Assembly: GCF_902388705.1 (NCBI RefSeq)
Contig: NZ_CABMQJ010000001.1
Span: forward strand, 78,454 to 142,453
Length of the DNA stretch: 64,000 nucleotides
Direction: 5' to 3'
Source of the DNA: an uncultured Alistipes sp.
Lineage (GTDB): Bacteria > Bacteroidota > Bacteroidia > Bacteroidales > Rikenellaceae
The position numbers and the translations under genes were made by a program. Position 1 is the first letter of the stretch. Each line of letters begins with the position of its first letter. The notes beneath the pieces were generated by a model. It searched no databases. It saw only the letters and a list, made by a program, of their open reading frames with translations, and was not told where the DNA came from. Below, one piece after another: positions 27,512 to 51,081 of the stretch.

Positions 27512-28006
27512 ATGAAGAGGATAACGAATCCCTGGCGCGGCATGGAGGGTTACCATTGCTACGGCTGCGATCCGAACAGTCCGCAGGGGCTGCGCATGGA
27601 GTTTTACGAAGACGGTGACGAAATCGTGAGCCTCTGGCGTCCCCGTCCCGAATATCAGGGCTGGGTAAATACGCTGCACGGAGGTATTCAGGCGACCTTG
27701 GCCGATGAAATCAGCAGTTGGGTCATATTCCGCAAGTTCCAGACGAGCGGTGTAACCTCGAAAATGGAAGTCCGCTATCATAGGCCGATTCATACGACAG
27801 ACGACCATATTGTCCTCCGCGCTGCCGTGTTGCGGCAGCGGCGCAATATCGTCGATATCGGAGTTCGTATCTATGATTTGAATGGCGAATTATGTACCGA
27901 GGCCGTGTGTGTCTATTTTATGTTTCCACAGGAAAAAGCGCACTCCGACTTCCATTTCTGCGAATGCGGCGTCGAAGCGGAGGAGGCGAATCCTTTCGGG
28001 AAGTAG
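27512..28006 (+). CDS. hotdog-fold thioesterase (PaaI-like)
   Basis: 164 aa. ..GWVNTLHGGIQATLADEISSWVIF... is the HGG...D signature of 4HBT/PaaI-type thioesterases. Confidence 0.55.
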   Translation: MKRITNPWRGMEGYHCYGCDPNSPQGLRMEFYEDGDEIVSLWRPRPEYQGWVNTLHGGIQATLADEISSWVIFRKFQTSGVTSKMEVRYHRPIHTTDDHIVLRAAVLRQRRNIVDIGVRIYDLNGELCTEAVCVYFMFPQEKAHSDFHFCECGVEAEEANPFGK

Positions 28007-28031
28007 GTGCTCTAAAGGTGATATGGCAAGG

Positions 28032-28066
28032 CAGGTTCGAACGACCTGCTTTATACGTTTTTATAT
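28032..28066 (+). terminator. terminator hairpin after the thioesterase gene
   Basis: GCAGGT, loop TCGAACG, ACCTGC, then TTTATACGTTTTTA. Confidence 0.4.
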
Positions 28067-28331
28067 AAAATAGGTATTTCCGCTTTTTTGACGATACCGG
28101 TCTTGGGGCTGATATGCCTCGGGGAGGGAGAATCGCACCGGTTCATATCGTTCGCCGGAATCCTGCGAAATGGTCGTATTTGTTGTCTGCTGTCCGAATG
28201 CCTGCGTTCTATGCGGAATCCCGGTGGAGAATTGCCCGATGGCAGGCTGCGCTGCGTCGGATTCCTGAGTTGTCGTTGAATTTATCCCGTTGAGAATCGA
28301 ATATTTCGGACTGGCCCCCGCGCGGAATTTT

Positions 28332-28805
28332 TTAGCGCATTGTCGGCGTGAAACTTTCGAATGTCTGGTCGTCGTAAAGCACGATGATTCGTTTGACATT
28401 TGCCTTGTCCGTCAACAGAGCGGATGAGATTTGCGAAGCCGCGTCCTTGGGTGGGTGTGCCGGTTCCCTGTCGTTCGATTTTTCTCCGTCCTGGAGTTTG
28501 CCGGAGACGACTGTGCCGAAAAGGTCGGCACCGGATGCTGCTGTTTGCGATGCCGGGGATACGGCGGATGGCTGTCCGGATTGCATTGCCGACCCGTCAC
28601 GGTACATCTTATCTGAATCGAGTAGCAACCAATCCGGATTGATTCGGGGGAACCTCTTGAGAATCTTTTGGAGCATATCGAAGCCCGGTTTGTTTCGTCC
28701 GGCAAGAATATGGGAGATTCCGGCGGGATTGATTTCGAGCAGTTCTGCGAGCTGGCTCGGCTTCAATCCCTCGTTTTTCATCAAATCGAGCAATTTTTCC
28801 CTCAT
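28332..28805 (-). CDS. helix-turn-helix DNA-binding protein (XRE-like HTH, low-complexity C-terminal half)
   Basis: MREKLLDLMKNEGLKPSQLAELLEINPAGISHILAGRNKPGFDMLQKILKRFPRINPDWLLL is an HTH_3-type motif, as in a small DNA-binding protein family common in Bacteroidota. The rest is Ser/Ala/Gln-rich. Confidence 0.7.
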   Translation of the reverse strand: MREKLLDLMKNEGLKPSQLAELLEINPAGISHILAGRNKPGFDMLQKILKRFPRINPDWLLLDSDKMYRDGSAMQSGQPSAVSPASQTAASGADLFGTVVSGKLQDGEKSNDREPAHPPKDAASQISSALLTDKANVKRIIVLYDDQTFESFTPTMR

Positions 28806-28820
28806 TTGTGTAATTTTTTA

Positions 28821-28828
28821 CAAATATA
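28821..28828 (-). promoter_or_regulatory. -7 promoter element TATATTTG of the HTH gene
   Basis: The plus-strand CAAATATA is TATATTTG on the minus strand, 15 nt upstream of the ATG (28805). It is flanked by the inverted repeat TTACAAA...TTTGTAA (28818-28846). Confidence 0.4.
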
Positions 28829-28860
28829 AATATTTTTCTTTTGTAAAACAAGAAAAATCT

Positions 28861-29290
28861 ACATTTGTAAAATGTTAATAGTTGTTGAAAAAGTTTACAT
28901 CTGTAATTTAGTTAATATTGTTAAAACTTACCAGATAAGCTTTGTTGAATCTAAAGTTTATATGGATATATGTATATAACTGATTATTAATCTATAATTA
29001 CATTTAATGCGGGCTGTGGCAGTCCTTATGGCGAGTTGTCACTACCCCACGACCTATGTGCTGAAATTATTTTGTAGGTAATCGCTGTAAATAGCTGGAT
29101 TATAGTACTTCGTTTTGTATTTGTTTAATCGTTTAACCGGCTGCGGACTGTATGTGAAACGCATTTTATCCGCACTCGCTCCCTGTTTTACAAATGGATT
29201 AATTAACAGCTCTACCAACGATTGTTAATTTACATATGTAATTACAAATGGAAATACAAGGGCAGATGGATGTTTACAATTGTAAATCCA
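28861..29290. promoter_or_regulatory. cluster of TTTACA-N2-TGTAA(A/T) palindromes and TGTAA half-sites in a 660-bp AT-rich leader
   Basis: Palindromes: ACATTTGTAAAATGT (28861-28875), TTTACAtcTGTAAT (28894-28907), TTTACAtaTGTAAT (29229-29242), and TTTACAATTGTAAA (29273-29286), which is a perfect 14-mer. There are at least 12 TTTGTAA/TTACAAA half-sites in total. Confidence 0.35.
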
Positions 29291-29387
29291 CCACCCTATT
29301 AAGTAAAAATTTCAGACTTTTTCTAATATTTCGAACTGTTGACAGACTAATTTATTAACAGCCCGATATTTCCTATGTATTATGTTA

Positions 29388-29428
29388 AATAAAAAAGAAC
29401 GGATAGTGTTAATAACCCACTATCCGTT
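29388..29428 (-). terminator. rho-independent terminator of the HIT gene
   Basis: 11-bp perfect stem AACGGATAGTG/CACTATCCGTT (29399-29409 and 29418-29428) with an 8-nt loop. On the minus strand it is followed by the U-run from plus AAATAAAAAAG. Confidence 0.7.
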
Positions 29429-29464
29429 TGTAATTCAAACGATTGTATTTTTGTAAACAGCCTT

Positions 29465-29851
29465 CTATTCAGAGAGTTTCGTTGCGATTTCCCGGAACTC
29501 ATCCGGCGTTAATTTAAGCTTTTCGCGGCGGAAATCCACGTCATTTTCGCTTTGAATGGGGATTAAATGGATATGTGCATGGGGAACTTCGAGGCCTAAA
29601 ACGACCACAGCTACCCTTGCGCATGCTATTTCCTGTTTGATTTTAGCTGCTACACGTTTCGCAAAGAGCATCATGCCCGCCAGTGTCTGGTCGTCGAGAT
29701 CGAAAATGTAGTCGATTTCTTTCTTGGGGACAACCAATGTGTGCCCTTTTGTCAGCGGATTGATGTCGAGGAATGCATAGTAGTTCTCGTCTTCGGCGAT
29801 TTTATAGGACGGAATTTCGCCGGCAATGATGCGTGAGAAAATGGATGCCAT
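29465..29851 (-). CDS. HIT-family (histidine triad, Hint-like) nucleotide hydrolase
   Basis: MASIFSRIIAGEIPSYKIAEDENYYAFLDINPLTKGHTLVVPK...HAHIHLIP (HxHxHxx triad). Confidence 0.85.
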   Translation of the reverse strand: MASIFSRIIAGEIPSYKIAEDENYYAFLDINPLTKGHTLVVPKKEIDYIFDLDDQTLAGMMLFAKRVAAKIKQEIACARVAVVVLGLEVPHAHIHLIPIQSENDVDFRREKLKLTPDEFREIATKLSE

Positions 29852-29868
29852 ATTTTATCGTTTTTAAT

Positions 29869-30162
29869 TTAGTGTAAATTATTCGTAGGATGCGGGCCTG
29901 TGCTGGTCGTTGACTTTCGGCCTGCTGCAATGCGCCTGCCCTCCATGACCTGTTTGACAGCGGCGGCGCAGTTGATAATAATCGTTATCAGGAAGAGGCT
30001 GTCCGTGAACGAAAACTTCCTGTCGGGTGCCGTGAAGAGGCATATAAGCCATGCGATAGCGAGCAGGCACCAGCATCCCAGTGCGAGATAGCCTCGTTTG
30101 GCCTGTTTCTGCGCCTCCTGCCGGTGGTATTCCGCCAGCCATTGTTCTTCTTCGGGTGTCAT
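29869..30162 (-). CDS. mini membrane protein, paralog A (about 97 aa, 2 TM, N-terminus MTPEEEQW)
   Basis: ATG at 30162 in the context ttcttcgggtgtcat. MTPEEEQWLAEYHRQEAQKQAKRGYLALGCWCLLAIAWLICLF...FLITIIINCAAAVKQ... is homologous to paralog B. Confidence 0.45.
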   Translation of the reverse strand: MTPEEEQWLAEYHRQEAQKQAKRGYLALGCWCLLAIAWLICLFTAPDRKFSFTDSLFLITIIINCAAAVKQVMEGRRIAAGRKSTTSTGPHPTNNLH

Positions 30163-30973: not shown

Positions 30974-33190
30974 TCAGCTTAAGGTTCGTTTAACGCTTTC
31001 AATGCCTTTTATCTTGCGCAGCTTGTCCATGACGTCATGCAGGCCCTCGGCATCCTTCACGTAGAGGCTTATGCTGCCTTCGAAGATGCCGTCGTGGCTG
31101 TGGATGCTGACCTCGCGGATGTTGATGCTGAAATCGCCGCTTACGACTTTCGCCAGGTCGAGCAGGATGCCCATGCGGTCGATGCCGCGCAGGTCGACTG
31201 TCACCAGGTACGACATGGCCTTGTGCTGCGACCATTTGATCTCTTCCTTGACGATGTTTTTGCCGAATTGCGCCGCGAGCCTGTCCAGCTCGTCGCAGCT
31301 GGCCTTGTGTACGATGATATTGCCCGTCGCAGGGTCGCGGTAGCCTACCACCTTGTCGCCGGGAATCGGCTTGCAGCATTCGGCGATTTCGAACTGCGGT
31401 TCCGGCGGAACCTCCCCGGTCGGGGCGATTTCACCCGGAAGGGCCGTGTCGTCGCCCTCTTCCTCCTCCTTTTTGGGGATGAAGAGCGTCCAGAACTTGA
31501 GTATCTTGCTTTTGGAATTGACTTTCAACGCCTTGTCCAAATCGTCGAGCTTGATGATGCCGGCGCCGATTTTGCTGTACAGTTCCTCCTTGTTGTTGCT
31601 TTCGTAGATGGGGACGATTTTGCGCAGTACGCGGCCGCTCAATTTGATATTCAGCGACTTCATCTTCTCGTCGAGCATCTGCATACCCCGCTCGATATTG
31701 TTTTGCCGCTCGCGCTTGAGGAAACTCTTAATCGACTGCTTGGCTTTGGCCGTGGTCACGACCTCGAGCCATTCGGGCTTGGGGCGCGCATTGTCGGCCG
31801 TGATGATTTCAATCTGGTCGCCGCTGTTGATGCGCGTAGTGATCGGCTCGAGTTTGTGGTTTATTTTGGCGCTGATGGCGCTGTTGCCTATTTTCGAGTG
31901 GATGTCGTATGCGAAGTCTAACGCCGTGGCGCCGAACGGCATTTTGCGGGCTTCTCCCTTTGGTGTAAATACAACTATTTCAGATGTATATAGCGACAAC
32001 TTGAAGTTGTCCAGGAAGTCGACCGCATTTTCCGTCGGGCTGTTCAGCGCCGCGCGTATCTGTTTCAGCCACTTGTCGAATTCATCCTCGTCCTGCGAGA
32101 TGGTAGCGTGCTTGTATTTCCAGTGCGCCGCGAAACCCCGCTCGGCGATGTCCTCCATGCGCTGGGTACGGATTTGCACCTCGACCCACACGCCGTCGGG
32201 CCCCATCACGGTCGAATGCAGGGCCTCGTAGCCGTTGGCCTTGGGCATCGAAATCCAGTCGCGCAGGCGGTCGGGCTTGGGGGTGTATATGTCCGTAATC
32301 GTGGAATATACCTGCCAGCACTGCGTTTTTTCGGATGGAAACGGCAGGGGTTTGAATACGATGCGGATAGCGAACAGGTCGTAAATCTCCTCGAAAGGAA
32401 TCTGTTTGCGCTGCATCTTGCTCCATATCGAGTAGACGCTTTTGACGCGGCCCGAGATTTCGTAATTGATGTTGTCGCGGTTGAGCGAGGCGATGATCGG
32501 GGCGTTGAACTTGTTGATGAACTCCCGGCGCGAAGCCTCTGTTTCGTTGAGTTTCTGGGTGATTTCGGCGTATTGCTGCGGGAAGCGGTACTTCATGCAG
32601 AGGTCTTCCAGCTCGCTTTTAATCGAGTAGAGGCCCAGCCTGTATGCCAGCGGGGCGAACAGGTAGATTGTTTCGCCCGTGATTTTAATCTGTTTGTTCA
32701 TCGGCATCGCTCCCAGCGTGCGCATGTTGTGCAGGCGGTCGGCGATTTTGATGAGGATGACCCGCACGTCGTCCGAAAGGGTCAGCAGTACTTTGCGGAA
32801 GTATTCGGCCTGCTCCGAGGTTTCGGCATTGAAAACACCCGACATCTTCGTAAGGCCGTCGACCATCGAGGCGATTTTCGGCCCGAAGATGCGTTCCATG
32901 TCCTCCACGGTGTACTCCGTGTCCTCCACGACGTCGTGCAGCAGCGCCGCCACGACCGATTTCACACCCAGTCCGATTTCCTCGATGACAATCTTGGCTA
33001 CTGCAATAGGATGCAGGAGGTACGGCTCGCCGGAGCGGCGCCTTACCCCCTGATGGGCCTCTTTGGCCAGGAAAAAAGCACGTTTGATGAAATTCCAGTC
33101 CTCGTCGTTCTTGCATATCTTGGTGCACGAGAGGAGCAGGTCGTCCCACTTTTCCTTGATTATGATTTCATCCTCGGCAGTATAATCCAT
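30974..33190 (-). CDS. relA: bifunctional (p)ppGpp synthetase/hydrolase RelA/SpoT
   Basis: HD hydrolase domain (..LHDVVEDT..), synthetase domain (YSIWSKMQRK, ..DLFAIRIV..), then TGS and a C-terminal ACT domain. 738 aa. Confidence 0.9.
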   Translation of the reverse strand: MDYTAEDEIIIKEKWDDLLLSCTKICKNDEDWNFIKRAFFLAKEAHQGVRRRSGEPYLLHPIAVAKIVIEEIGLGVKSVVAALLHDVVEDTEYTVEDMERIFGPKIASMVDGLTKMSGVFNAETSEQAEYFRKVLLTLSDDVRVILIKIADRLHNMRTLGAMPMNKQIKITGETIYLFAPLAYRLGLYSIKSELEDLCMKYRFPQQYAEITQKLNETEASRREFINKFNAPIIASLNRDNINYEISGRVKSVYSIWSKMQRKQIPFEEIYDLFAIRIVFKPLPFPSEKTQCWQVYSTITDIYTPKPDRLRDWISMPKANGYEALHSTVMGPDGVWVEVQIRTQRMEDIAERGFAAHWKYKHATISQDEDEFDKWLKQIRAALNSPTENAVDFLDNFKLSLYTSEIVVFTPKGEARKMPFGATALDFAYDIHSKIGNSAISAKINHKLEPITTRINSGDQIEIITADNARPKPEWLEVVTTAKAKQSIKSFLKRERQNNIERGMQMLDEKMKSLNIKLSGRVLRKIVPIYESNNKEELYSKIGAGIIKLDDLDKALKVNSKSKILKFWTLFIPKKEEEEGDDTALPGEIAPTGEVPPEPQFEIAECCKPIPGDKVVGYRDPATGNIIVHKASCDELDRLAAQFGKNIVKEEIKWSQHKAMSYLVTVDLRGIDRMGILLDLAKVVSGDFSINIREVSIHSHDGIFEGSISLYVKDAEGLHDVMDKLRKIKGIESVKRTLS

Positions 33191-33193
33191 ACC

Positions 33194-34207
33194 TTATGCT
33201 TTAGGGTTCTTCATGGCCTCGCGTACCTTGGCCTCGATTTCGCTGCGGAGCTCCCCGTCGTTTTTCAGCAGTTCCTTGACCGCGTCGCGCCCCTGTCCTA
33301 TCTTCCTGTCGCCGTACGAGAACCAGGAACCGGCTTTCTTGAGTACGCCGTAGTCGACGCCCAGATCAACAATCTCGCCGATTTTCGAGATGCCTTCGCC
33401 GAACATGATGTCGAATTCCGCGCGTTTGAACGGCGGTGCCACCTTGTTTTTCACCACCTTGACCTTGGTGCGGGTGCCTAACTGGTCTTCGCCGTCCTTG
33501 ATGACCGACATGCGGCGGATGTCGATACGCACACTGGCGTAGAACTTCAGCGCATTACCGCCCGTCGTGGTTTCGGGGTTGCCGTATACGATGCCGATTT
33601 TGTCGCGCAACTGGTTGATGAAGATGCAGACCGTCTTGGTTTTCGAGATGCTCGAGGTGAGTTTGCGCAGCGCCTGCGACATCAGCCGGGCCTGCAGACC
33701 CATTTTCGAGTCGCCCATCTCGCCTTCGATTTCGGCCTTGGGCGTCAGCGCCGCTACCGAGTCGATAACGATGATGTCGATGGCGCTCGAACGAATCAGC
33801 GAGTCGGCGATTTCCAGCGCCTGCTCGCCGTTGTCGGGCTGCGAAATCAGCAGGTTGTCGACGTCTACGCCTAACTTCTGTGCGTAGAAACTGTCGAAAG
33901 CATGCTCGGCGTCGATAAACGCCGCGATGCCGCCCGCTTTCTGGGCTTCGGCGATGGCGTGGATGGCGAGGGTCGTTTTACCCGATGATTCGGGACCGTA
34001 AATTTCCACGACGCGGCCTTTGGGATAGCCGCCTACGCCGAGGGCCATGTCGAGGGTGATCGACCCTGTCGGGATAACCGGCACGTCGTTCACCTCCTGC
34101 GAGTTCATGCGCATGATCGAACCTTTGCCGAAGTCCTTTTCTATTTTTTCCATTACTGCGTTAAGCACTTTGAGCTTATCCGCGTTTACCTGTACTTTTT
34201 CTGCCAT
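33194..34207 (-). CDS. recA: recombinase RecA
   Basis: Walker [12 protein letters not shown], and the ..[19 protein letters not shown].. block. Full length at 337 aa. Confidence 0.95.
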
Positions 34208-34239
34208 TGTTTTGGTTGTTATTTTCTTTTATTTTACGC

Positions 34240-34797
34240 TTATCTGCCTTGCCGCCGCATCCTGTCGAGGGCTTTCATCTGGTCGGTGCGTTTGTCCGCC
34301 CGTGCGTCGCGCGGAACGGGGAAGCGTATCGTCCGGGCGTCCAGCGCACGATCCTGAAAAGGACTCCAGTTGTCGACCGAAGTGTTGCCGATGCTCATCC
34401 GCCAAGAGCCGACCTCTTTGTTCAGGTCGCGCTTCTGCGTGTGCCGGTGTGCTTTTATCACCGACTCCTGCGTCATGGCGCGGTGCTGCATCTCCTCTCT
34501 TATCTTGCGGCGGGCCCGCTGTATCGGGTCGACCTCCTCGCGCAGCCATTGGAGGCTGAACTCTTCGGGCGGGAGCATCCGCAGTTCGCGGGCCGCGGCA
34601 TGCGCCTTGGCCGCGAAATCAGCCGGGAATTCCTGCTGCGGTGCCGCCGGCCGTTCTGCTGCTACTCCCGCAGGGAGTTCCTGTGCGGGGTGCTTCGGAG
34701 AGCCCTGCGCCGGTTCCGCCGGGAGCTGCCTTGCATGCGACTGCAAGGTGCCGAACAGGCAGCCTGCTGCCAGTAATATGCTCCCGAACCGTTTCAT
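34240..34797 (-). CDS. hypothetical secreted protein (signal peptide, Pro/Ala-rich N-terminus, basic C-terminus)
   Basis: MKRFGSILLAAGCLFGTLQSHARQ (signal). Sits between bcp and recA on the same strand. Confidence 0.45.
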   Translation of the reverse strand: MKRFGSILLAAGCLFGTLQSHARQLPAEPAQGSPKHPAQELPAGVAAERPAAPQQEFPADFAAKAHAAARELRMLPPEEFSLQWLREEVDPIQRARRKIREEMQHRAMTQESVIKAHRHTQKRDLNKEVGSWRMSIGNTSVDNWSPFQDRALDARTIRFPVPRDARADKRTDQMKALDRMRRQGR

Positions 34798-34801
34798 TCG
34801 C

Positions 34802-35263
34802 CTATTTGTATGCGTCCAGAATCTGCTGGTAATGGTTTGCGGTGTTTACCTTCGTAAACAATTTCTCGATACGCCCCTCGGCGTCGATAACGAACGTCGT
34901 GCGCAGTACGCCCATGTATTTGCGGCCGTACATCGATTTCTCGGCCCAGACCCCGTAGGCTTCGCAGACGCTGTGGTCGGTGTCGGACAGCAGCGTGAAA
35001 TTCAGGTCGTGCTTCGCACAGAAGTTTTTGTGCGACTTTTCGCTGTCGGGGCTCACGCCGATAATGCGGAATCCCATCCGCGCTAACTCTGCCTTGCCGT
35101 CGCGCAGGCTTTTGGCCTCGAGCGTGCAGCCCGACGTGTTGTCCTTGGGATAAAAATAGAGTATCGTGCGCTGTCCTTTCAGGTCGGCAAGCGACAGGGG
35201 CTCACCGTCTTGTGTCGTGGACTTGAAATCGGGGGCCATATCCCCTACCTGCAACTGTGTCAT
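34802..35263 (-). CDS. bcp: thioredoxin-dependent peroxiredoxin Bcp
   Basis: ..GQRTILYFYPKDNTSGCTLEA.. carries the peroxidatic Cys in the P..T/SxxC motif. 153 aa. Confidence 0.9.
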   Translation of the reverse strand: MTQLQVGDMAPDFKSTTQDGEPLSLADLKGQRTILYFYPKDNTSGCTLEAKSLRDGKAELARMGFRIIGVSPDSEKSHKNFCAKHDLNFTLLSDTDHSVCEAYGVWAEKSMYGRKYMGVLRTTFVIDAEGRIEKLFTKVNTANHYQQILDAYK

Positions 35264-35417
35264 CGGTTTGCGAAAAATTGTTTTTTGTTTCCTTAAAAAT
35301 AGTACGTGCCGTGCGCCGCGCCGATTTTTCGGCGTAATGCCCGGGCAGGGCGTATTTTGTGTAAAGATATAAATTTTCCGTGGATTTCTGCGCCTCCCGC
35401 GCCCACTTTTTTGCGGC

Positions 35418-35630
35418 TCAATCCCACATGTAGGTCACCTCTATCTGTTCGTTGAACTCCTCCTTCGAGGTGTTGAGTTTTTTCAGGCATGCCGGACACC
35501 GGATCGCCGTTTCTGTTTCGACGTATTCGCCGCATCCCACGCACATCGGCAGCATGCCGTAGCCGGGCTGCATGTAGTGCTCGAACTGCGCTCCGCAGTG
35601 CTTGCACCTGATTTTGTAAGCTGTTCCCAT
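35418..35630 (-). CDS. small zinc-ribbon protein (70 aa, three CxxC pairs)
   Basis: ATG at 35630 gives MGTAYKIRCKHCGAQFEHYMQPGYGMLPMCVGCGEYVETETAIRCPACLKK... The longer track ORF from 35726 lacks support. Confidence 0.45.
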   Translation of the reverse strand: MGTAYKIRCKHCGAQFEHYMQPGYGMLPMCVGCGEYVETETAIRCPACLKKLNTSKEEFNEQIEVTYMWD

Positions 35631-35753
35631 AATTGTTTTCTTTTTAGGTTCACGATACAAAGGAACGGCTCTGTTGTGACAACTTGTGACACACAAAGAA
35701 AAAACGTATGTTTTTTCGGAAAACATACGTTTTTTTCGGGAAAGCCGGGCGGC

Positions 35754-36284
35754 CTAATGATGGTGTTCGGCCTCCATGGCCTCCTGCTGGGTCTTGTGCA
35801 CGGTGCCGTGGGGATGCTCTGCGGGGGCGTAAATCGAGTAGATTTTCAGCGGCGTGTTCCCCTTGTTGACGATGTTGTGCCATTTCCCGGCGGGAACGAA
35901 AATCGCGAAATCGTCCGAGGCTTCCCGCACGAAGTCGAGGTTGTCCTCGCTGTCGCCCATCATCACCTGTGCCGTACCCTGTTCGATGCGCAGGAACTGG
36001 TCGATGTCATGGTGCTGTTCCAGCCCGACGTCACAGCCGACGGGAATCGCCATTACCGTGACCTGCAGGTTATTGCCCGTCCAGAGCGTAGTCCTGAAAT
36101 TCTCGTTCGACAGCGTATAGTCTTCGATGTTCAGCACGGTCGGCCCGGCTCCGTAATCTTTGAATACGACCTCTCCGGTCGTTTTTGCGCCGGGCGTTTC
36201 CGGTGCCGGGGCCTGCCGGCAGCAGGAGCCGGTCGCAAGTGCCGTGCACAGCACTCCCAGCATTATTGCGGTGTTTGTTTTCAT
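35754..36284 (-). CDS. cupin-domain lipoprotein
   Basis: ATG at 36284 gives MKTNTAIMLGVLCTALATGSCC (lipobox). A cupin beta-barrel follows with ..FAIFVPAGKWHNIVNKGNTPLKIYSIYAP.. and a His-rich C-terminus EAEHHH. The 319-aa track ORF upstream extension is rejected. Confidence 0.6.
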   Translation of the reverse strand: MKTNTAIMLGVLCTALATGSCCRQAPAPETPGAKTTGEVVFKDYGAGPTVLNIEDYTLSNENFRTTLWTGNNLQVTVMAIPVGCDVGLEQHHDIDQFLRIEQGTAQVMMGDSEDNLDFVREASDDFAIFVPAGKWHNIVNKGNTPLKIYSIYAPAEHPHGTVHKTQQEAMEAEHHH

Positions 36285-36328
36285 GGTGTCGGTGTTTTGT
36301 TTTACACAAATATAATGAAAAAACCGTG

Positions 36329-37225
36329 CTAAAAAATGTTCGCGTCGATATATTCGCGGATATATTTCGCCAGTCCCGGCGAATCGACGATGCGGATGTC
36401 GTCCAGCAGTCCCACGACGAAGCGTCCCACTCCGGCGTATCCTGCGACCTCCGTGTCGAGCAGCCAGCGTCCCCGGCCCGACGGCCGGACGTCGCGCTCG
36501 GCCAGCGGATACTCCTCGCACAGCAGGTTGTAGGCCAGTAATCCCAGTTCCAATTGTACCCGGTGGCGTGTTTGTCCGTGCATGCGGAAAACGTCGATGA
36601 ATCCCTCGCAGTGCTCCTTCCCGTGCTCCCATGCGGCTTCGGTAAGTTCCACCGCTCCGATGCGCGAAGTCTTGAATAACTTGCAGGCGCCGGCTTCCGG
36701 GTCGTAACACCACACCTGCACATAGTTGGTGGTAAAGGCGAACGGCTCTACCCTGCGGTCGCGGACTTCGCCGCCGTGTGCCGACTGGTAGCTGTGCAGG
36801 ACGACCTGCCGCTGCTCGCCGATGGCCTCGATCAGCGTGCGGATGTTCGGGGCGTTCTTGCCCCTGACCACCGTGTCGGCCAGCGTTTTGTTGTCGTAGA
36901 CCGAGTAGAGTTTGCGCTTGAGGTTCTGCTTCAGCATGTTCGTGTCGTCGATGTTCTCGATGGCGCTTTTCAGGATTACGGCCTCTTCTTCGGTGAAATG
37001 TACCAGCTGCGAGATGTCGCGGAAATGCGGCGATTCCTTGTCGAGGCGGATGCAGTCGCCCGATTTTTTGATGACGAAGCCCGCCTCGCGGAACGTGTCG
37101 ATATAGCGGTATACCGTGCGGCGCGACATGTCGAGCCGTTCGGCCAGCTGGTCGATGTTGTACGTGGTATTCGCCGTCAGCAGCTTCATCAGCCGCAGCA
37201 GGCGTTCGAGTTTGGGTTGGTCCAT
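36329..37225 (-). CDS. WYL-domain transcriptional regulator (N-terminal HTH, WYL, then a C-terminal WCX-like extension)
   Basis: HTH: LERLLRLMKLLTANTTYNIDQLAERLDMSRRTVYRYIDTFREAGFVI. WYL domain region: ..VVLHSYQSAHGGEVRDRRVEPFAFTTNYVQVWCYDPEAGACKLFKTSRIG.... 298 aa. Confidence 0.75.
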   Translation of the reverse strand: MDQPKLERLLRLMKLLTANTTYNIDQLAERLDMSRRTVYRYIDTFREAGFVIKKSGDCIRLDKESPHFRDISQLVHFTEEEAVILKSAIENIDDTNMLKQNLKRKLYSVYDNKTLADTVVRGKNAPNIRTLIEAIGEQRQVVLHSYQSAHGGEVRDRRVEPFAFTTNYVQVWCYDPEAGACKLFKTSRIGAVELTEAAWEHGKEHCEGFIDVFRMHGQTRHRVQLELGLLAYNLLCEEYPLAERDVRPSGRGRWLLDTEVAGYAGVGRFVVGLLDDIRIVDSPGLAKYIREYIDANIF

Positions 37226-37229
37226 ACTG

Positions 37230-37745
37230 TTATTGTCCGTATTTTTCGAGGTATCGGCAAAGCGTTTTGTATAGTTCGTTGCGTTGGCAGCTGATTAAAT
37301 CCGGCGAGATGTTTATCGCGGATCCCGTCAGGCTGCGGTTCCATTTGGTCAGTCGCATGCGAAACCGGTTGCGTTCCTGCCTGGCCTCTTCCGGGATTTC
37401 ATACGTGACGACTGCGATAAAAGACTGGCTCTGGAGTCGGATTTCATTGAAAACCCGGATCTCGCTCCATTTCAGGTCGTATTGTTTCCCGTTTGGCTGG
37501 CGTATTGTGATTTTTTCCGGTGTGAGTATCAGGGCTTCGCTGTTGCGTGACAATTGTCGGAGAATGCCGAGTCCGTAGATGAAACAGGCTCCGAAGAAAA
37601 GGCTCCCCAGACACCCGATTATCCAGATAAGCGGATTTTGCGGCCGCAGGCGGATGAGCAGCACTCCGCATGCGACGAATGCCGGAGCGCACAGCAGCAG
37701 CAATGCTGCCATCCGCAGAACCTTGAAACGATAGATTCTTTTCAT
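37230..37745 (-). CDS. membrane protein with two N-terminal TM helices and a bacterial PH-like domain
   Basis: MKRIYRFKVLRMAALLLLCAPAFVACGVLL..IWIIGCLGSLFFGACFIYGL (2 TM) then ..ALILTPEKITIRQPNGKQYDLKWSEIRVFNE.. (YcxB/bPH_2-like). Confidence 0.45.
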   Translation of the reverse strand: MKRIYRFKVLRMAALLLLCAPAFVACGVLLIRLRPQNPLIWIIGCLGSLFFGACFIYGLGILRQLSRNSEALILTPEKITIRQPNGKQYDLKWSEIRVFNEIRLQSQSFIAVVTYEIPEEARQERNRFRMRLTKWNRSLTGSAINISPDLISCQRNELYKTLCRYLEKYGQ

Positions 37746-37857
37746 GGAGACAAAGATATAAAAAAAGCCGTGACAAAACCTGTCACGGCTCCCTGTTTGG
37801 GTATTACGGTATGCAAAGGCGCGCAGCTTTTCGGAAGATTTCCGTCTTCCGCGAAGC

Positions 37858-39270
37858 TTACTGCGCCAGTACTTTCTTTTCTATTTCTTCGACCTGGCGG
37901 CGGAATGCCTTGTCGGTTTCAATCAGGTTCGATACGGCCTTGCACGAGTGGAGTACGGTCGCGTGGTTGCGCCCTCCGATTGCCGAACCGATGGTCGTGA
38001 GCGGCGCCTTGGTGTGCTGCTTCGAGAGGTACATCGCGATTTGGCGGGCCTGCGCGATTTCCCGTGTGCGCTCGGTGGAGTTGAAGCGGGCGAAATCGAG
38101 GTTCAGGTATTCGCATACGACCTTGATGATATGGTCGATCGTGATTTCCTTCTGGTAGAGCTGGACATACACTTTGAGTATCTCCTTTGCCAGCGATGTG
38201 GTGATTTTGCGGCCGAGGAACGAAGCGTTCGCCACCAGCGACGAGAGCGCACCCTCGATTTCGCGCACGTTGGCCGAGATATTGTCGGCCAGGTAGGCCA
38301 CGACGTCGTCCGAAATCTGCGCCCCGAGTTTCTGCGCCTTGACGCGGATAATCTTGAGTTTCGTATCGTAGTCCGGCGTATTGAGCTGTGCCGAAAGTCC
38401 CCACTTGAAGCGGGTCAGCAGCCGCTGCTCGATGTCTTTCAGCTCCACGGGCGGCTTGTCCGAAGTGAGAATCAGTTGTTTGCCCGCCAGCTGCAGGTGG
38501 TTGAAGATATTGAAGAACGCGTTCTGCGTACCCGTCTTCCCGGTCAGCTCCTGAATGTCGTCGATGATCAGTACGTCGATCATCTGGTAGAAGTGGATGA
38601 AATCGGGGATTTCACCGTTCTTGTAGGCGGTCTGGAACTGTGCCTGGAACTTGTTCATCGACACGTACAGCACCTGCAGTTCGGGGTGGCGCTGGCGCAC
38701 CTCGTGGCCGATGGCCTGCACGATATGGGTTTTGCCCAGTCCCGAATCCCCGTATATATATAAGGGGTTGAACGGATTGTTGCCCGGATTCACCGCGACG
38801 GACATGCCCGCCGAGCGTGCCAGCCGGTTGCACTCGCCCTCGATGAAAGTCGCGAACGTGAGGCCCGGATTGAGCTGCGGGTCGATAATTATCTTTTTGA
38901 GTCCCGGAATAACGAAAGGATTCTTTATATTTGCCGTGTTGGTCTGCGTGTTGAAACGCGAGATGGCCGTGGTGTCGGCGTCGGCGGTAACGGGTACGAC
39001 CGGAGTGACCGAGCGGGGCACGGCATAGTGCAGCCGGGTCTGTTGCCCGTAGAGTTGCGAGATGATCGGGCGCAGGAACGGAATGTAGTTCTTCTCGATC
39101 TGGTGTACGTAACTTTCGTTGGGGACACGCAGGCGCAGGTTGGTGCCGTCGAATTCGAGCGGTACGATAGGCTGGAACCACTTCGCGAACTCCTCTTCGG
39201 AAGTCTGTGCCTTGATGCGGTCAAGGCAGTTCTGCCACATATCGCTATATGTCTGCGTGTTGTTTAACAT
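37858..39270 (-). CDS. dnaA: chromosomal replication initiator DnaA
   Basis: ATG at 39270 gives MLNNTQTYSDMWQNCLDRIKAQTSEEEFAKWF.... AAA+ Walker A GDSGLGKTH, then ..VLIIDDIQ.., and the C-terminal DNA-binding domain ..IGSAIGGRNHATVLHSCKAV... Confidence 0.92.
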   Translation of the reverse strand: MLNNTQTYSDMWQNCLDRIKAQTSEEEFAKWFQPIVPLEFDGTNLRLRVPNESYVHQIEKNYIPFLRPIISQLYGQQTRLHYAVPRSVTPVVPVTADADTTAISRFNTQTNTANIKNPFVIPGLKKIIIDPQLNPGLTFATFIEGECNRLARSAGMSVAVNPGNNPFNPLYIYGDSGLGKTHIVQAIGHEVRQRHPELQVLYVSMNKFQAQFQTAYKNGEIPDFIHFYQMIDVLIIDDIQELTGKTGTQNAFFNIFNHLQLAGKQLILTSDKPPVELKDIEQRLLTRFKWGLSAQLNTPDYDTKLKIIRVKAQKLGAQISDDVVAYLADNISANVREIEGALSSLVANASFLGRKITTSLAKEILKVYVQLYQKEITIDHIIKVVCEYLNLDFARFNSTERTREIAQARQIAMYLSKQHTKAPLTTIGSAIGGRNHATVLHSCKAVSNLIETDKAFRRQVEEIEKKVLAQ

Positions 39271-42636: not shown

Positions 42637-43020
42637 ATGGCAGAAACAGCGAAGAGCCGACCGCAGGAACTGACCCGTGCAGAACTGGAAATCATGCAGG
42701 TTTTATGGGCCAAAGGAGCCGTCGTCGTACACGATATTCTCGACGAGATGGACGAACCCAAACCGGCCTACAACACCGTTTCGACAATTGTCCGCATTCT
42801 CGAAAAGAAAGGTTTCGTGTCGCACAAGGCCTATGGCAAGACCCACGAATATTACCCCCTTATCTCGAAAGACGACTATGCGCGCCGTTATATGGATACC
42901 GTGCTGAACAACTTCTTCGGCGGTTCCGTGAGCCGGCTGGTGTCGTTCTTCTCCGAAAACAAGGCGATTTCGCTGGAGGAAACCGATGCTATCCTGGACA
43001 TGCTCAAAAAACGCAAGTGA
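42637..43020 (+). CDS. blaI: BlaI/MecI/CopY-family transcriptional repressor
   Basis: MAETAKSRPQELTRAELEIMQVLWAKGAVVVHDILDEMDEPKPAYNTVSTIVRILEKKGFV is a winged helix of the penicillinase-repressor family. 127 aa. Confidence 0.85.
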   Translation: MAETAKSRPQELTRAELEIMQVLWAKGAVVVHDILDEMDEPKPAYNTVSTIVRILEKKGFVSHKAYGKTHEYYPLISKDDYARRYMDTVLNNFFGGSVSRLVSFFSENKAISLEETDAILDMLKKRK

Positions 43021-45251
43021 TGAAATCCCCGGCCCTTTACCTGCTTGAAGTGCTTTTTTGCAGCGGTTTGCTGCTGGCTTTTTACCGCCTGCTGCTCGTC
43101 CGCAAGGTTTCCTATGCGGCCTGCCGCCGTTATCTGGTGTTCGCTGTGTGGCTCTCCGTCGTGATTCCGGCACTCAACATTCCCCTCTACCCTGCCCGCA
43201 CGGTGGTTTATCCGCTGCCGCTGATTGCAGCCGTGCCTGCGGCGGAGTTGCCGGAGCCTGACGGCATCGGTGTCGGGACGATGGCGGAAATAAGGGTGCC
43301 GGACGAATTTACGGCTCCGGCTGTCGATTGGGGACATGTCGCCCGCGTCGCACTCCTTGTATTGTATGTGCTGACTGCGGCCGTGTCGCTGGGAATCCTC
43401 GCTGTGCGCATCGCCGGTATCCGGCGCCTGCGCCGCCGTTCCCGGATTACCGAGTGCGGGGAATATGCGGTTGCGGAGAATCAGCAGGTCGAAACACCCT
43501 TTTCATTCTTTCGTACGGTCTTTCTCGGCGAGGGCTACGAGGGGCGCAGGCGCGGAATCGTGCTTTGCCACGAGGCGAGCCACATTCGCCATCGCCACAC
43601 CTGCGAGCGTATAGCCGTCGAATCGGTGCGCTGTATCTTCTGGTTCAATCCATTCGTGTGGATAGCTGCACGCTGGCTCTCCGAGGTGCAGGAGTGGGAA
43701 GCCGACCGCGACGTGCTCGACGCGGGATACGACCTTACCGAATACAGAACGATTATTTTCCGTCAACTCTTCGGTTATAATCCGGATATAGCCTGCGGGT
43801 TGAATCATTCACTCACTAAAAACCGATTTGCCATGATGACACAATTCCGAATGCGCCGATTCGCGTTCCTGCGCCTCGGTGCAGCCGTCCCGATAGTGGC
43901 GGGAATGATACTCCTTTGCAGTTTTACGACCCGGACGCCCGATGCCGAAGCCCCTGACGGAACATCCGTCCATATCGGCGAAAACGGCGCCATCACCCTG
44001 AACGGGCGTTCCGTTACCCGCGACGAGCTGTCCGGCTATGTGGCTGCGCAGCGCGAAATCCTTTCCGGCGCCGGCCGGGAGGCTATGCAGCAGCTGCCTG
44101 CGGACGAAGTTTCCGGTAATCCGGCGACCGCCGTAAACAAAACGGTGACATTCGGCTCTTCGGGCCTGCTGGAGGTGCTCTGTGCCGACAGGGTCTATCC
44201 GTCCGATGTACAAACGATGATATTCGCCGGCAACGTGCGTGTCCGTTTCAGGGACGATTCGCCCGACCCGACGATGAAAGACGGCTTGACGGAAATAACC
44301 TGCGACAGCCTGATTGTGAACAGCGCCGACCGGAGTTTCGAATGCTTCGATGCCTTGTTGCGGAATACTGTGAGGCTCTCGGTGGGTGACTGGTACCGCA
44401 TTTCCGCCAATAGTTACGGGAACTGGAACCGGGAGATGAAAAATGTGGTGGAAACTTCGCTGAATACTGTCCTTATACAGGTTTCTTCCGACGGGAACAT
44501 ACTGCTGAACGGCGAGCCTGCAACGACCGCCGGATTGAAAGAACGGCTTATCGCGTGGCGCAGTGAGCGTCCCTCTGCCGATGTCGGAGCATGGATTATG
44601 GCCCGGAAAAATACGAGTATGGGCGTTGTGACCGACGTGAAACAGGCTTTGCGTGCCGCCGGCATACTGCGTGTGCTGTATGACGGAACCGACGACCGTG
44701 CGGTCGTGCGCATGCTGCCGCCGGATACGACGGTACAGCCGGTCGACGGAAGGATAAATGTCACCGATGTGACATCCTCCGGCAACGATTTCAGAATCAA
44801 GGAGCGCAATCTGTTTCTGGTGCTGGTCAACGGCTCGGGCAAGGTGATGGCCGGGACTGCCGGCCGGCAGGAGGTGATTGATGCCGGGGAACTTACGGCG
44901 CGTGTCAAGGCGTTCGTGCTCAACCCGTCCAACGATTCCGGGTTTTCCGAGAGGTCGGATGCCGAATTCGACCTTCCCGGCGGCGGTAAGATGAGTTATC
45001 CGGTGAGCCAGGGCGTCGTATCGCTGCAAATGGCCCGCGATGCCTCCTACGGTCGCTATCGCGAAGTGCAGAGCCGCATTGCGCAGGCGTTCGACGATGT
45101 CCGCGCCGGGTTGGCGCTGCGGCAGTTCGGAAAAGCCTTTGATGAACTGTCCGACGCACAGCGGCAGGTGGTGATGCGGGCCGTGCCGCTGAAAGTTTCC
45201 GAGGCCGAACCGCACACGCTGGCCGAACCCCGCACGCTTCCCCGGCGATAA
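43020..45251 (+). CDS. BlaR1-like M56-family membrane metalloprotease/signal transducer with a long C-terminal ExbD/TolR-like extracytoplasmic region
   Basis: ATG at 43020 overlaps the blaI TGA (gTGATG). 4 TM. HEXXH zinc motif LCHEASHIRHRH. The C-terminal roughly 480 aa contain ExbD-like segments, for example LIQVSSDGNILLNGEPATTAGLKERL....VVTDVKQALRAAGILRV, in place of a penicillin-binding sensor domain. Confidence 0.75.
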   Translation: MKSPALYLLEVLFCSGLLLAFYRLLLVRKVSYAACRRYLVFAVWLSVVIPALNIPLYPARTVVYPLPLIAAVPAAELPEPDGIGVGTMAEIRVPDEFTAPAVDWGHVARVALLVLYVLTAAVSLGILAVRIAGIRRLRRRSRITECGEYAVAENQQVETPFSFFRTVFLGEGYEGRRRGIVLCHEASHIRHRHTCERIAVESVRCIFWFNPFVWIAARWLSEVQEWEADRDVLDAGYDLTEYRTIIFRQLFGYNPDIACGLNHSLTKNRFAMMTQFRMRRFAFLRLGAAVPIVAGMILLCSFTTRTPDAEAPDGTSVHIGENGAITLNGRSVTRDELSGYVAAQREILSGAGREAMQQLPADEVSGNPATAVNKTVTFGSSGLLEVLCADRVYPSDVQTMIFAGNVRVRFRDDSPDPTMKDGLTEITCDSLIVNSADRSFECFDALLRNTVRLSVGDWYRISANSYGNWNREMKNVVETSLNTVLIQVSSDGNILLNGEPATTAGLKERLIAWRSERPSADVGAWIMARKNTSMGVVTDVKQALRAAGILRVLYDGTDDRAVVRMLPPDTTVQPVDGRINVTDVTSSGNDFRIKERNLFLVLVNGSGKVMAGTAGRQEVIDAGELTARVKAFVLNPSNDSGFSERSDAEFDLPGGGKMSYPVSQGVVSLQMARDASYGRYREVQSRIAQAFDDVRAGLALRQFGKAFDELSDAQRQVVMRAVPLKVSEAEPHTLAEPRTLPRR

Positions 45252-48291: not shown

Positions 48292-51081
48292 TTATAATTT
48301 CGTACGCAGGCGGAGGTATTGGCCCGTGTGGCTCGCCGGGCATTGCTCCAGGTTGCGGGGCGTGCCCTCGAATACGACGTTGCCGCCGCCCGTGCCCGCC
48401 TCGGGCCCCAGGTCGACGACCCAGTCGGCGCATTTGATGACGTCCATGTTGTGCTCCACGACGACGATTGTGTGTCCCCGTTCGATCAGGGCGTTGAATG
48501 CCGCCAGCAACTTGTTGATGTCGTGGAAATGGAGTCCTGTCGTGGGTTCGTCGAAGATGAACATTACGCCGCCCTGCGCGCTGTCCTTGGTGAGGAACGA
48601 CGCCAGTTTCACGCGCTGGCTCTCGCCGCCCGAAAGGGTCGACGACGACTGTCCGAGCTTGATGTAGCCCAGCCCCACGTCCTGCAGCGGTTTGAGCCGT
48701 TCGACGATGCGCTTGCAGGTCGAGTCCTTCCTGTCTTCACCGAAGAACGCGATTGCGTCGTCGACGGTCATCTCCAGCACGTCGTAGATTGACTTGCCGC
48801 GGTATTTCACCTCGAGGATTTCGTCGCGGAAACGCCTGCCCCCGCACGCTTCGCAGACCAGTTCGACATCGGCCATGAACTGCATCGAAACCTTGATCAC
48901 ACCCTCGCCCTGGCACTCCTCGCAGCGTCCTCCTGCGATGTTGAACGAGAACGACGAAGCCCCGAGTCCCGTATGTTGGGCGTAAGGTTGGTCGGCGAAC
49001 AGTTTGCGGATTTCGTCGTAAGCCTTGATGTAGGTCACCGGGTTCGAGCGCGACGATTTGCCGATGGGATTCTGGTCGATCATCTCCACCGATTTGAGCA
49101 GCTGCACGTTCCCCGTGATGCCGTCGAAATCGCCCGGCTTGACGCCCGTGTCGAAAAGCATGCGCCGCAGCGCCGGGTAGAGGATGCCCTTTGCAAGCGA
49201 CGATTTGCCGCTTCCGCTGACGCCCGTGATGCAGGTCATCACCCCCAGCGGAATCCGTACGTCGATGTTCCGGAGGTTATTTTCGCGGGCTCCTTCGATT
49301 GTGATCGAGTTGCTCCAGCCGCGTTCGGTCGCGGGAGGCGTTATCGAGCGGCGACCGGTCAGGTAGTCGGCCGTCAGGCTCTTCCTGCTTTCGAGCAGCT
49401 GGGGCAGCGTGCCGCTGAAAACCACTTCGCCGCCGTTGTAGCCCGCCTTGGGGCCGATGTCGACGATGTAGTCGGCGGCGCGGATTACCTCCTCCTCGTG
49501 CTCGACGACGATGACCGTATTGCCCAGGTCGCGCAGTTGCTTGAGTACCTTGATGAGCCGGTTGGTGTCGCGCGGATGCAGGCCGATCGAGGGCTCGTCG
49601 AGGATGTAGAGCGAGCCCGTGAGGTTGCTGCCCAGCGAGGTCGAAAGGTTGATGCGCTGGCTTTCGCCGCCCGAGAGGGTCGACGAAAGGCGGTCGAGCG
49701 TCAGGTAACCCAACCCTACGTCGGCCAGGTATTGCAGGCGGTTGCGTATCTCGACCAGGATGCGCGCCGCGGTCTTCGCGTCGTGCTCGTCGAGTTCCAG
49801 TCCGTTGAAGAACGGAATCAGTTCGTCGACCGGCATTATCACCAAATCGGCAATGGTTTTCCCGCCGACACGTACGTACAGCGCCTCTTTGCGCAGGCGG
49901 CTGCCGCCGCATTCGGGGCAGGCGGTCTTGCCCGTATAGCGGGCCTTCATCACGCGGAACTGGATTTTGCGCCGCTCCGAGTCGATGTAGGCGAAGAAGT
50001 CGTCCAGTCCGTGGAAATATTCGTTGCCGCGCCACAGCAGCCGTTTCTGCTCCTGCGTCAGCTCATGGAACGGGGTGTGTATCGGGAAATCGAACTTGTA
50101 GGCATTCTCCACGAGGCGCTCTTTCCATTTGCGCATCGTTTCGCCGCGCCAGCAGGCTATGGCGTCCTCGTAGATGGTTTTGCTCTTGTCGGGGATTACC
50201 AGGTCTTCGTCGATGCCGATTACCTTGCCGTAGCCCTCGCAGCGGGGACATGCCCCCAGCGGGTTGTTGAAACTGAACAGGTGCTCCGTCGGCGGTTCGA
50301 ACTCGATGCCGTCGGCTTCGAAGCGCGACGAAAATTCAGCCGTGCCCCTGTCGCTTATGACCGTGCAGATGCCCTCGCCGTAGGAGAATGCGCGGGCAAT
50401 CGAATCGCGCAGGCGAGTCTGTGTGTCGTCGTCCGCCGCGATACGCGCACGATCCACGACCACGAGGATTTCTCCGGCGTCGGTCTTGTCGTCGATGCCG
50501 GGCAGGATGTCCTCGATAAGGCGGGTTTCGCCGCCCGTCCGGACGCGCATCAGGCCGTCGGAGAGCAGCAGCGTGAGTTTCTCGATGATGCCCTGCCCCG
50601 GGCTCAGTACGAGCGGTGCGGCGATGACGACGCGGCTGCCCTCGCCCAGCCCTTGGATGTAGGCCGCCACGTCGTCCACGCTGTAACAGCGCACCTCCTG
50701 TCCCGATACGGGCGAATAGGTGTGGCCGGTGCGGGCGAACAGCAGTTTCAGGTAGTCGTATATCTCGGTCGTGGTGCCTACCGTCGAACGGGGATTGCGC
50801 GTGTTGACTTTCTGCTCGATGGCGATGGCCGGCGCAATGCCCGAGATGATGTCCACGTCGGGTTTGTTGATTTTCCCGAGGAACTGGCGGGCATATGCCG
50901 AGAGGCTCTCGACATAGCGGCGCTGTCCTTCGGCGAAGATCGTGTCGAAAGCCAGCGTAGACTTTCCCGAGCCCGAGAGGCCCGTGACGACGACCAGTTT
51001 GTCGTGCGGAATTTCCACCTCGATGTTCTTGAGGTTGTGAACCCGCGCACCTTTGATATATATCGAATTTTCGTGTGCCAT
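48292..51081 (-). CDS. uvrA: excinuclease ABC subunit A
   Basis: Two ABC modules ([23 protein letters not shown]...; [11 protein letters not shown]..), zinc fingers [14 protein letters not shown] and CEECQGEG. 929 aa. Confidence 0.95.

Follow-up and report, generated by a model that had tools for sequence, protein, structure and literature searches.

A WYL-domain regulator gene (36329-37225, minus strand) lies between dnaA and recA in a 64,000-nucleotide (nt) stretch of DNA from an uncultured Alistipes sp., which was analysed over its full length and is referred to here as the window. The regulator, a single protein of 298 amino acids (aa) with helix-turn-helix (HTH), WYL and WCX domains, is probably a local switch for one small gene, that of a 70-aa zinc-ribbon mini-protein (ZR; 35418-35630, minus strand), acting through a 17-bp operator, and its adjacency to recA would be a matter of lineage synteny. 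We favour this reading because the candidate operator exclusively, and at a fixed position, accompanies the WYL gene across many types of cargo genes. The result is a concrete, testable unit of a candidate 17-bp operator, a promoter and one small probable target in a common genus of the human gut. For WYL biology in general the advance is incremental, since WYL regulators that act as local switches or accompany defence systems have been described before.

In the proposed mechanism, a dimer of the WYL regulator would bind the near-palindrome GTGWCA-N5-TGWCAC, which takes the place of the -33 element in the promoter of the next conserved gene, at a set distance of 14 nt from the TTTG in its -7 box. 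In Alistipes, this next conserved gene would be ZR, a genus-restricted zinc ribbon. In the nearest clade only, a second operator within the hairpin that follows dnaA may also allow the regulator to control its own operon. By analogy with characterized WYL proteins, the WYL/WCX part would be a sensor of nucleic acid, with single-stranded DNA (ssDNA) as the likeliest ligand, and would thereby turn ZR on, either by activation in the style of DriD, PafBC and SiwR or by de-repression in the style of BrxR and CapW. These expectations about the ligand and the sign of regulation are drawn from DriD, PafBC, SiwR and CapW (PMC9186387, PMC11804915, PMC10693628; PDB 9c5g).

Candidate operator and promoter geometry

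The operator block was derived by aligning the regions upstream of ZR from 80 Alistipes/Rikenellaceae species, which share tGTGTCAnAAgtTGtCAc-N10-TtccTTTG. With one mismatch allowed, the 17-bp near-palindrome GTGWCA-N5-TGWCAC has two matches in the window against 0.18 expected, and both flank the WYL unit. The first candidate operator, GTGTCACAAGTTGTCAC (35676-35692, minus strand), precedes the TTTG of the ZR box by 14 nt; this box reads TTCCTTTG (35658-35665, minus strand). The second, with the stem GTGACA-N5-TGTCAC and its core at 37770-37786 on the minus strand, is located inside the dnaA terminator hairpin (37762-37794) and just upstream of the operon that WYL presumably forms with a preceding gene of the STM3941 family, from which it is separated by a 4-nt gap.

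Enrichment was examined in 161 loci comprising 1.8 Mb, with flanks of up to 10 kb. The core pattern is enriched about 30-fold over shuffled sequence, and beyond its WYL-linked sites the operator is absent from the 1.8 Mb. An operator followed by a -7 box lies downstream of WYL on the same strand in 129 of the 161 loci. Only two kinds of position are occupied across loci, one upstream of ZR and the other upstream of WYL. Nearly all Alistipes/Rikenellaceae loci that contain ZR have the ZR-upstream copy, and those that seem to lack it differ from the motif by a single base. A direct succession of WYL stop codon and operator, seen in some species, looks like the ancestral arrangement.

The sequence TAnnTTTG is the -7 promoter consensus of Bacteroidota. 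In 151 of 173 instances, 14 nt separate the operator from the TTTG, which leaves 10 nt up to the -7 box, and at this constant box position TTCCTTTG occurs more often than any other 8-mer (65 instances). The operator occupies the place of the -33 element in the ZR promoter. Its own GTTG was considered as a -33 element and ruled out by its spacing under the promoter consensus. A location at -33 fits an activator of the DriD or PafBC type, and a repressor could use the same position.

It could be argued that the motif is not a WYL site at all and represents the site of another factor or a promoter or terminator feature of the lineage, in which case the WYL gene would have no link to its neighbours. 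The copy upstream of WYL lends itself to this argument, as it doubles as a terminator stem and its spacing varies. However, the motif tracks WYL across at least five types of downstream genes and over 44-100% identity of the regulator, and it overlaps the WYL stop codon in several loci. In addition, the enrichment and the absence from the remaining flanks speak for a dedicated site, and the 6-N5-6 palindrome suits a dimeric winged-helix protein. We therefore regard a motif unrelated to the WYL regulator as quite improbable.

The second candidate operator is probably an autoregulatory site for the STM3941-WYL operon in the clade nearest to the window. About 20 of the closest species agree in all 6+6 bases of its stem and vary in the loop and the outer stem pairs. 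In L013 (loci are denoted by L and a number), the stem of the dnaA hairpin is the ZR-type variant GTGTCA/TGACAC. A -7 type box of the STM3941-WYL operon, TATCTTTG, was read from the sequence at 37751-37758 (minus strand), and the box GTATCTTTG follows the dnaA hairpin in related loci too.

Several points count against the local switch as a whole or in part. The WYL-upstream copy is missing in more distant Alistipes species, which have unrelated terminator stems, its spacing to the -7 box varies between 14 and 16 nt, and it may be a simple terminator stem. L049 and L072 keep an intact WYL gene beside dnaA with neither ZR nor operator, and the WYL regulator may for this reason have other targets. 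The scan extended over the window and at most 10 kb of flanking sequence, and distal operators, for example at cas or repair genes, are possible. ZR and bcp have no detected terminator between them, so that the ZR transcript may run into bcp-recA. Finally, the structure model of ZR is poor, with a predicted local distance difference test (pLDDT) score of 60, and has no significant fold match.

The WYL regulator and its characterized relatives

The window protein is a bona fide HTH-WYL-WCX regulator. Its N-terminus matches the winged helix-turn-helix family PF08279 HTH_11 (6e-10, residues 8-54) and its centre PF13280 WYL (26.8 bits against a cut-off of 21.8, residues 127-193), and PF25583 WCX is recorded in close homologues. 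The AlphaFold model has a pLDDT of 76, with a beta-rich domain at residues 139-198 that reaches 87-97. When the full-length model was compared with the PDB by Foldseek, the best matches were PafBC, DriD, BrxR and CapW (E-values of 6e-13 to 1e-7, probability 1.00, identity 12-20%), the similarity to BrxR and CapW being weaker than that to PafBC and DriD. These domain matches above cut-offs and the predicted fold bear out the WYL-domain assignment of the initial annotation. A sequence-profile search of the PDB returned PafC/PafBC alone, and weakly (PafC, E-value 2.6e-5), with DriD, BrxR and CapW below significance. Among PADLOC models, the top match is PDLC01457 'WYL, CAS associated_signaling' (4.5e-23), followed by PDLC01652 (4e-10).

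The residues Y146, S148, R157, Y168, K182 and R188 are invariant among the regulators. When aligned by eye, this set of Tyr, Ser, Arg and Lys residues resembles the ssDNA contacts of DriD, which is suggestive of a similar ligand.

PafBC of actinobacteria is a WYL activator that binds ssDNA, has its box in place of the -35 element and controls recA directly (PMC11804915). It is the top fold match and the sole sequence-level match of the window protein in the PDB. However, PafBC consists of two WYL proteins, paired as a heterodimer or fused, and is linked to the Pup-proteasome locus, whereas the window encodes one 298-aa protein and has neither another WYL gene nor paf genes nearby.

DriD of Caulobacter crescentus (PMC9186387) has the same three-domain fold (Foldseek E-value about 7e-12), and its sites stand in for the -35 element, with constant spacing to the -10 (PMC13004042). 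The two systems are alike in having a palindromic site over a missing -35 or -33 element at a fixed distance from the -10 or -7 box, and a small protein as the principal target, DidA in Caulobacter and, by our reading, ZR here. They also appear to share the invariant tyrosine of the WYL-motif 'NY[LVI]', Y168 in the window protein, in an alignment made by eye. In contrast, the identity is only 14-17%, and the DriD regulon consists of several damage genes, whereas here no operator is found at recA, bcp or uvrA. DidA is a membrane division inhibitor, and ZR is a soluble zinc ribbon.

SiwR of Mycobacterium smegmatis is a homodimeric WYL activator that binds ssDNA through its WYL domain and acts at -26 of adjacent genes (PMC10693628). 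As proposed for the window regulator, it is a single-chain HTH-WYL protein of a small local operon, with a site inside the core promoter. It belongs to another phylum, however, its targets are DinB/YfiT-like enzymes, and its sequence similarity to the window protein was undetectable here.

A further parallel is provided by BrxR, CapW and CRISPR-associated WYL proteins (PMC9122601), whose genes directly precede exchangeable defence cargo, the promoter between the two containing a palindromic operator. The candidate operator of the window is likewise placed between regulator and cargo, where it may be bound in the same manner. Unlike these loci, the window has no defence system, and its cargo, situated between dnaA and recA, encodes a zinc-ribbon mini-protein. 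CRISPR-associated WYL regulators were reportedly described by Makarova et al. in 2014.

Relatives in CRISPR-Cas and restriction-modification loci

Loci of distant relatives were taken from cluster look-ups, as the profile search mostly returned Alistipes-like sequences; the metagenome scan was run with an 11-sequence alignment. WYL relatives of 44-62% identity have the same cassette downstream, in the form TGWCA-N5-TGTCAA-N9-10-TAnnTTTG. Most have it no further than 60 nt from the WYL stop codon, with an overlap in some, and L176 has it about 270 nt downstream. These relatives are near neither dnaA nor recA. The gene that follows differs from locus to locus. It encodes a HIRAN-domain protein of 105-135 aa in 23 loci (PF08797, 1.8e-15), is cas12a in L174 and L175 and Cas6-like in L116 and L129, and in L176 is a 518-aa gene followed by type I restriction-modification (R-M) genes. 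The HIRAN domain is a binder of DNA 3' ends. These HIRAN genes head or lie within CRISPR-Cas loci, either of type I-B with Cas6b and Cas8b or with Cas8c/Csp2. In L140, the order is a 1540-aa protein taken as Cas9, WYL, HIRAN, Cas1_II and Cas2_II, followed by 55 repeats of 47 nt.

From this gene context, the WYL subfamily is a CRISPR- and defence-associated lineage, with members at type I-B, Cas8c-type, II-C and V-A systems and at R-M genes, which agrees with the concept of the BrxR family (PMC9122601). Because the cassette is common to the wider Bacteroidales clade, the Alistipes regulator can be considered a member of this lineage at a non-CRISPR location. A regulator-operator cassette that heads CRISPR-Cas loci, often by way of a HIRAN gene, is also a lead on the control of CRISPR-Cas expression in Bacteroidales.

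Such relatives raise the question of whether the true targets of the window regulator are distal, for example a CRISPR-Cas or defence locus, with ZR as a minor or vestigial local target. The CAS-associated WYL protein as the top PADLOC model, the residence of the relatives within type I-B, Cas8c-type, II-C and V-A CRISPR loci, the two loci that hold WYL without ZR and the 10-kb reach of the scan would all be compatible with it. On the other side, operator and ZR are kept together in 61 of 63 species, and the conservation pattern of ZR described below argues for a functional local pair. Moreover, no cas gene, CRISPR array or defence gene was found in the window, and the cargo slots of Alistipes contained neither a cas gene nor a CRISPR array. 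Mainly distal targets thus appear rather unlikely, and the local ZR switch is retained.

Two side observations concern these loci. HIRAN genes directly follow the WYL operator in L094, L099, L134, L138, L140, L151 and others, an arrangement that matches the PADLOC candidate PDC-M03B; no description of a WYL-HIRAN-cas association was found in the part of the literature covered. At 7170-7736 of L176, about 530 nt devoid of called genes separate the operator and box from the 518-aa gene and the type I R-M genes, possibly as an extended leader or a non-coding RNA.

The zinc-ribbon mini-protein

From the position of the operator, ZR is very probably the target of the WYL regulator. The ZR family comprises 108 proteins, and all given source names are Alistipes. 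Among 58 homologues, C10, C13, C46 and C49 show no or almost no variation, and the two termini are conserved as well. The invariant Cys ligands and conserved termini show what appears to be a pattern of purifying selection. The protein evolves faster than WYL (39-94% against 69-91% identity). Its description as a triple-CxxC protein holds for the window, where all three motifs are present, but not for the family, as the middle CxxC has no conservation among the 58 homologues. Searches of Pfam, NCBIfam, PHROGs and PADLOC gave just generic zinc-ribbon matches, all below cut-off. The JGI label 'phage Mu Com' was reproduced by none of the models run, and the zinc-ribbon look-alikes found by Foldseek in the PDB, among them ribosomal S27e and the MCM N-terminal domain, are insignificant (all E-values above 0.5).

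In ruminant-type Alistipes, the ZR transcription unit under the WYL operator also contains a hydrophobic mini open reading frame (ORF) of 24-33 aa, such as MLFATLVFIGISAEVISYIFGGRSKL. It lies between operator and ZR in L062, L065 (about 3795-3875), L067, L070, L075, L079, L087 and L088, and just 3' of ZR in L064 and L088. This mini-ORF is unannotated and reminiscent of the small damage-induced membrane peptides SidA and DidA.

Synteny in Alistipes and Rikenellaceae

Synteny was assessed in 80 loci, of which 63 have at least 3.5 kb downstream of WYL and 68 are assessable upstream. ZR and recA are each found downstream of WYL in 61 of the 63 loci, and bcp in 48. The location of WYL between dnaA and bcp-recA is thus a synteny of the Alistipes lineage. 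Cultivable species that possess the locus include A. finegoldii, A. onderdonkii and A. timonensis. Conservation of the neighbourhood, as envisaged by the initial annotation, therefore extends to the order dnaA-WYL-ZR-(bcp)-recA across Alistipes/Rikenellaceae; it does not include the cupin gene, which is lineage-specific, and relatives of the regulator in other taxa are located elsewhere.

The cupin gene (35754-36284, minus strand; Cupin_2, 1.6e-9), whose product has a lipoprotein-type signal, occurs in 9 of the 80 loci overall and in 8 of the 63 assessable downstream. The gene for a 171-aa membrane protein of the STM3941 family (37230-37745, minus strand; NCBIfam NF041635, 1.4e-34) occurs in 11 of the 80 loci (26-66% identity) and in 9 of the 68 assessable upstream. 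The slots between dnaA and WYL and between WYL and the operator hold differing genes in each species (L011-L090). In the window these slots are located at 37746-37857 and at 36285-36328 plus 35631-35753, and represent insertion hot spots flanking WYL. Since the slots differ between species, cupin and STM3941 are regarded as inserted cargo. Cupin is a lineage-specific insertion between the WYL gene and its operator, and STM3941 is variable cargo that in this strain is the first gene of the WYL operon. In other species, the cargo includes GNAT, carbonic-anhydrase, aspartase, fucosidase, phosphatase, sulfatase and sialidase genes and a thioredoxin-like lipoprotein, identities that were mostly judged by eye from sequence. 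The slots were also considered as a mobile defence island, a view that was dropped since no identifiable cargo, again mostly judged by eye, looks defence-related.

bcp, recA and relA

LexA orthologues are absent from Bacteroidales (PMC8565304), and as of 2010 no SOS-like response was known in Bacteroides fragilis (PMC3025348). In such a LexA-less order, it was sensible to consider a WYL regulator next to recA for the role of damage regulator, and the initial annotation had proposed a possible LexA-independent circuit of the PafBC or DriD kind, responsive to DNA damage or oxidative stress, that would control recA and bcp, with the cupin and zinc-ribbon proteins as candidate members of its regulon. 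Most of the support for this proposal has now been removed.

In favour of the recA circuit, WYL lies upstream of both ZR and recA in 61 of 63 Alistipes loci, the missing LexA leaves room for a regulator, the closest folds are the ssDNA-sensing activators PafBC and DriD, and transcriptional read-through from ZR into bcp is possible. Furthermore, the usual target of the relatives is a HIRAN protein, with a domain known to bind DNA 3' ends. However, the search for a shared motif upstream of recA, bcp and cupin that the initial annotation had suggested gave a different picture. No operator was found upstream of bcp, recA, relA, cupin or uvrA in the 64-kb window or in about 160 related loci, uvrA being the 929-aa ORF at 48292-51081, which was assigned by its length equal to that of a UvrA-domain gene in L010. 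Instead, a conserved TAnnTTTG box with no operator precedes bcp, or recA where bcp is missing, by 30-40 nt in every species; in the window this is TATCTTTA at 35362-35369 (minus strand). The 64 non-Alistipes loci without dnaA and ZR (WYL of 46-62% identity, tblastn) gave no recA match at all, and the relatives sit in CRISPR-Cas and R-M loci.

The genes in question are bcp (34802-35263; NF006960, 2.7e-52), a gene for a 185-aa protein with a signal-like N-terminus and no family match (34240-34797), recA (33194-34207; PF00154, 1e-138) and relA/spoT (30974-33190; TIGR00691, 4.7e-182), all on the minus strand. bcp adjoins the recA unit on the same strand under the shared upstream box, and co-transcription has a precedent in B. 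fragilis, where a bcp-type peroxidase gene and recA belong to one three-gene operon for which neither a WYL regulator nor ZR is described (PMC3025348). Since this operon has no described WYL gene, the link between bcp and recA is independent of WYL, and bcp-recA linkage is an older Bacteroidales feature that predates the WYL arrangement. The B. fragilis operon has another second gene, whereas the window has the unrelated 185-aa protein. On the evidence of cis elements, the four genes from bcp to relA (30974-35263) would form a neighbouring unit outside the WYL module.

As for the proposed regulon, ZR stands as a very probable target, but cupin is not considered a member because it occurs in merely 9 of 80 loci and has its own box and its own terminator. 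Collectively, these results leave control of recA and bcp by the WYL regulator unlikely. The locus is accordingly a weak candidate for damage-response control in Bacteroidales, and the recA circuit survives only as possible read-through from ZR. In a related scenario, to which we give a similarly small chance, an ssDNA-triggered cassette would have been recruited beside recA in LexA-less Bacteroidales as a damage checkpoint resembling DriD/DidA; ssDNA from damage would then raise ZR, in some species along with the adjacent hydrophobic 24-33-aa peptide, and read-through would raise bcp-recA-relA.

Most loci also share a conserved GCAAAAAAGTnG element immediately past the ZR stop codon, located in the window at 35395-35420. 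This element precedes the bcp -7 box by about 45 nt and might be bound by a different regulator of bcp-recA.

Gene arrangement in the window

Gene calls in the window were based on Pfam and NCBIfam domain searches and ORF positions, and all genes of the run are on the minus strand. The order from dnaA (37858-39270; Bac_DnaA domains) to relA agrees with the initial annotation, every gene being found at the position given there. The membrane protein that it called PH-like scores as a member of the STM3941 family. The intergenic gaps from dnaA to relA are 112, 4, 44, 123, 154, 4, 32 and 3 nt. The description of a co-directional run is correct as to the strand, but the run comprises several transcription units, because intrinsic-terminator-like hairpins follow dnaA and cupin (the latter at 35699-35735, minus strand; terminator scan) and boxes precede STM3941, cupin, ZR and bcp. 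These boxes are all of the TAnnTTTG type by sequence reading, that of cupin being TATATTTG at 36307-36314 (minus strand). Rfam and tRNA scans of the window at 29-41.5 kb and 27-42 kb gave no RNA gene.

Some features of the wider window were also observed. The cumulative GC skew rises monotonically over positions 1-64000 with no inflection at dnaA, and the replication origin is therefore not obviously beside this gene. A BlaI/BlaR-like pair (Penicillinase_R and Peptidase_M56) at about 42637-45251 on the plus strand is present in this strain, in L001-L005 and in L007, is missing from the same place in L010, and represents a strain-variable insertion between a MazG gene and a 303-aa gene. The region 28000-30000 has a low GC content (0.43 against about 0.57 elsewhere) and contains a 36-nt tandem repeat of 2.1 copies (28852-28926) downstream of a HIT gene. 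Lastly, G-rich tandem repeats of variable length are found between the dnaA stop codon and the terminator hairpin in L019, L026, L043 and L047, the repeat unit in L043 being GAGACCCATGCGAAGGACCGAGAGCAGGGGGAGCAT.

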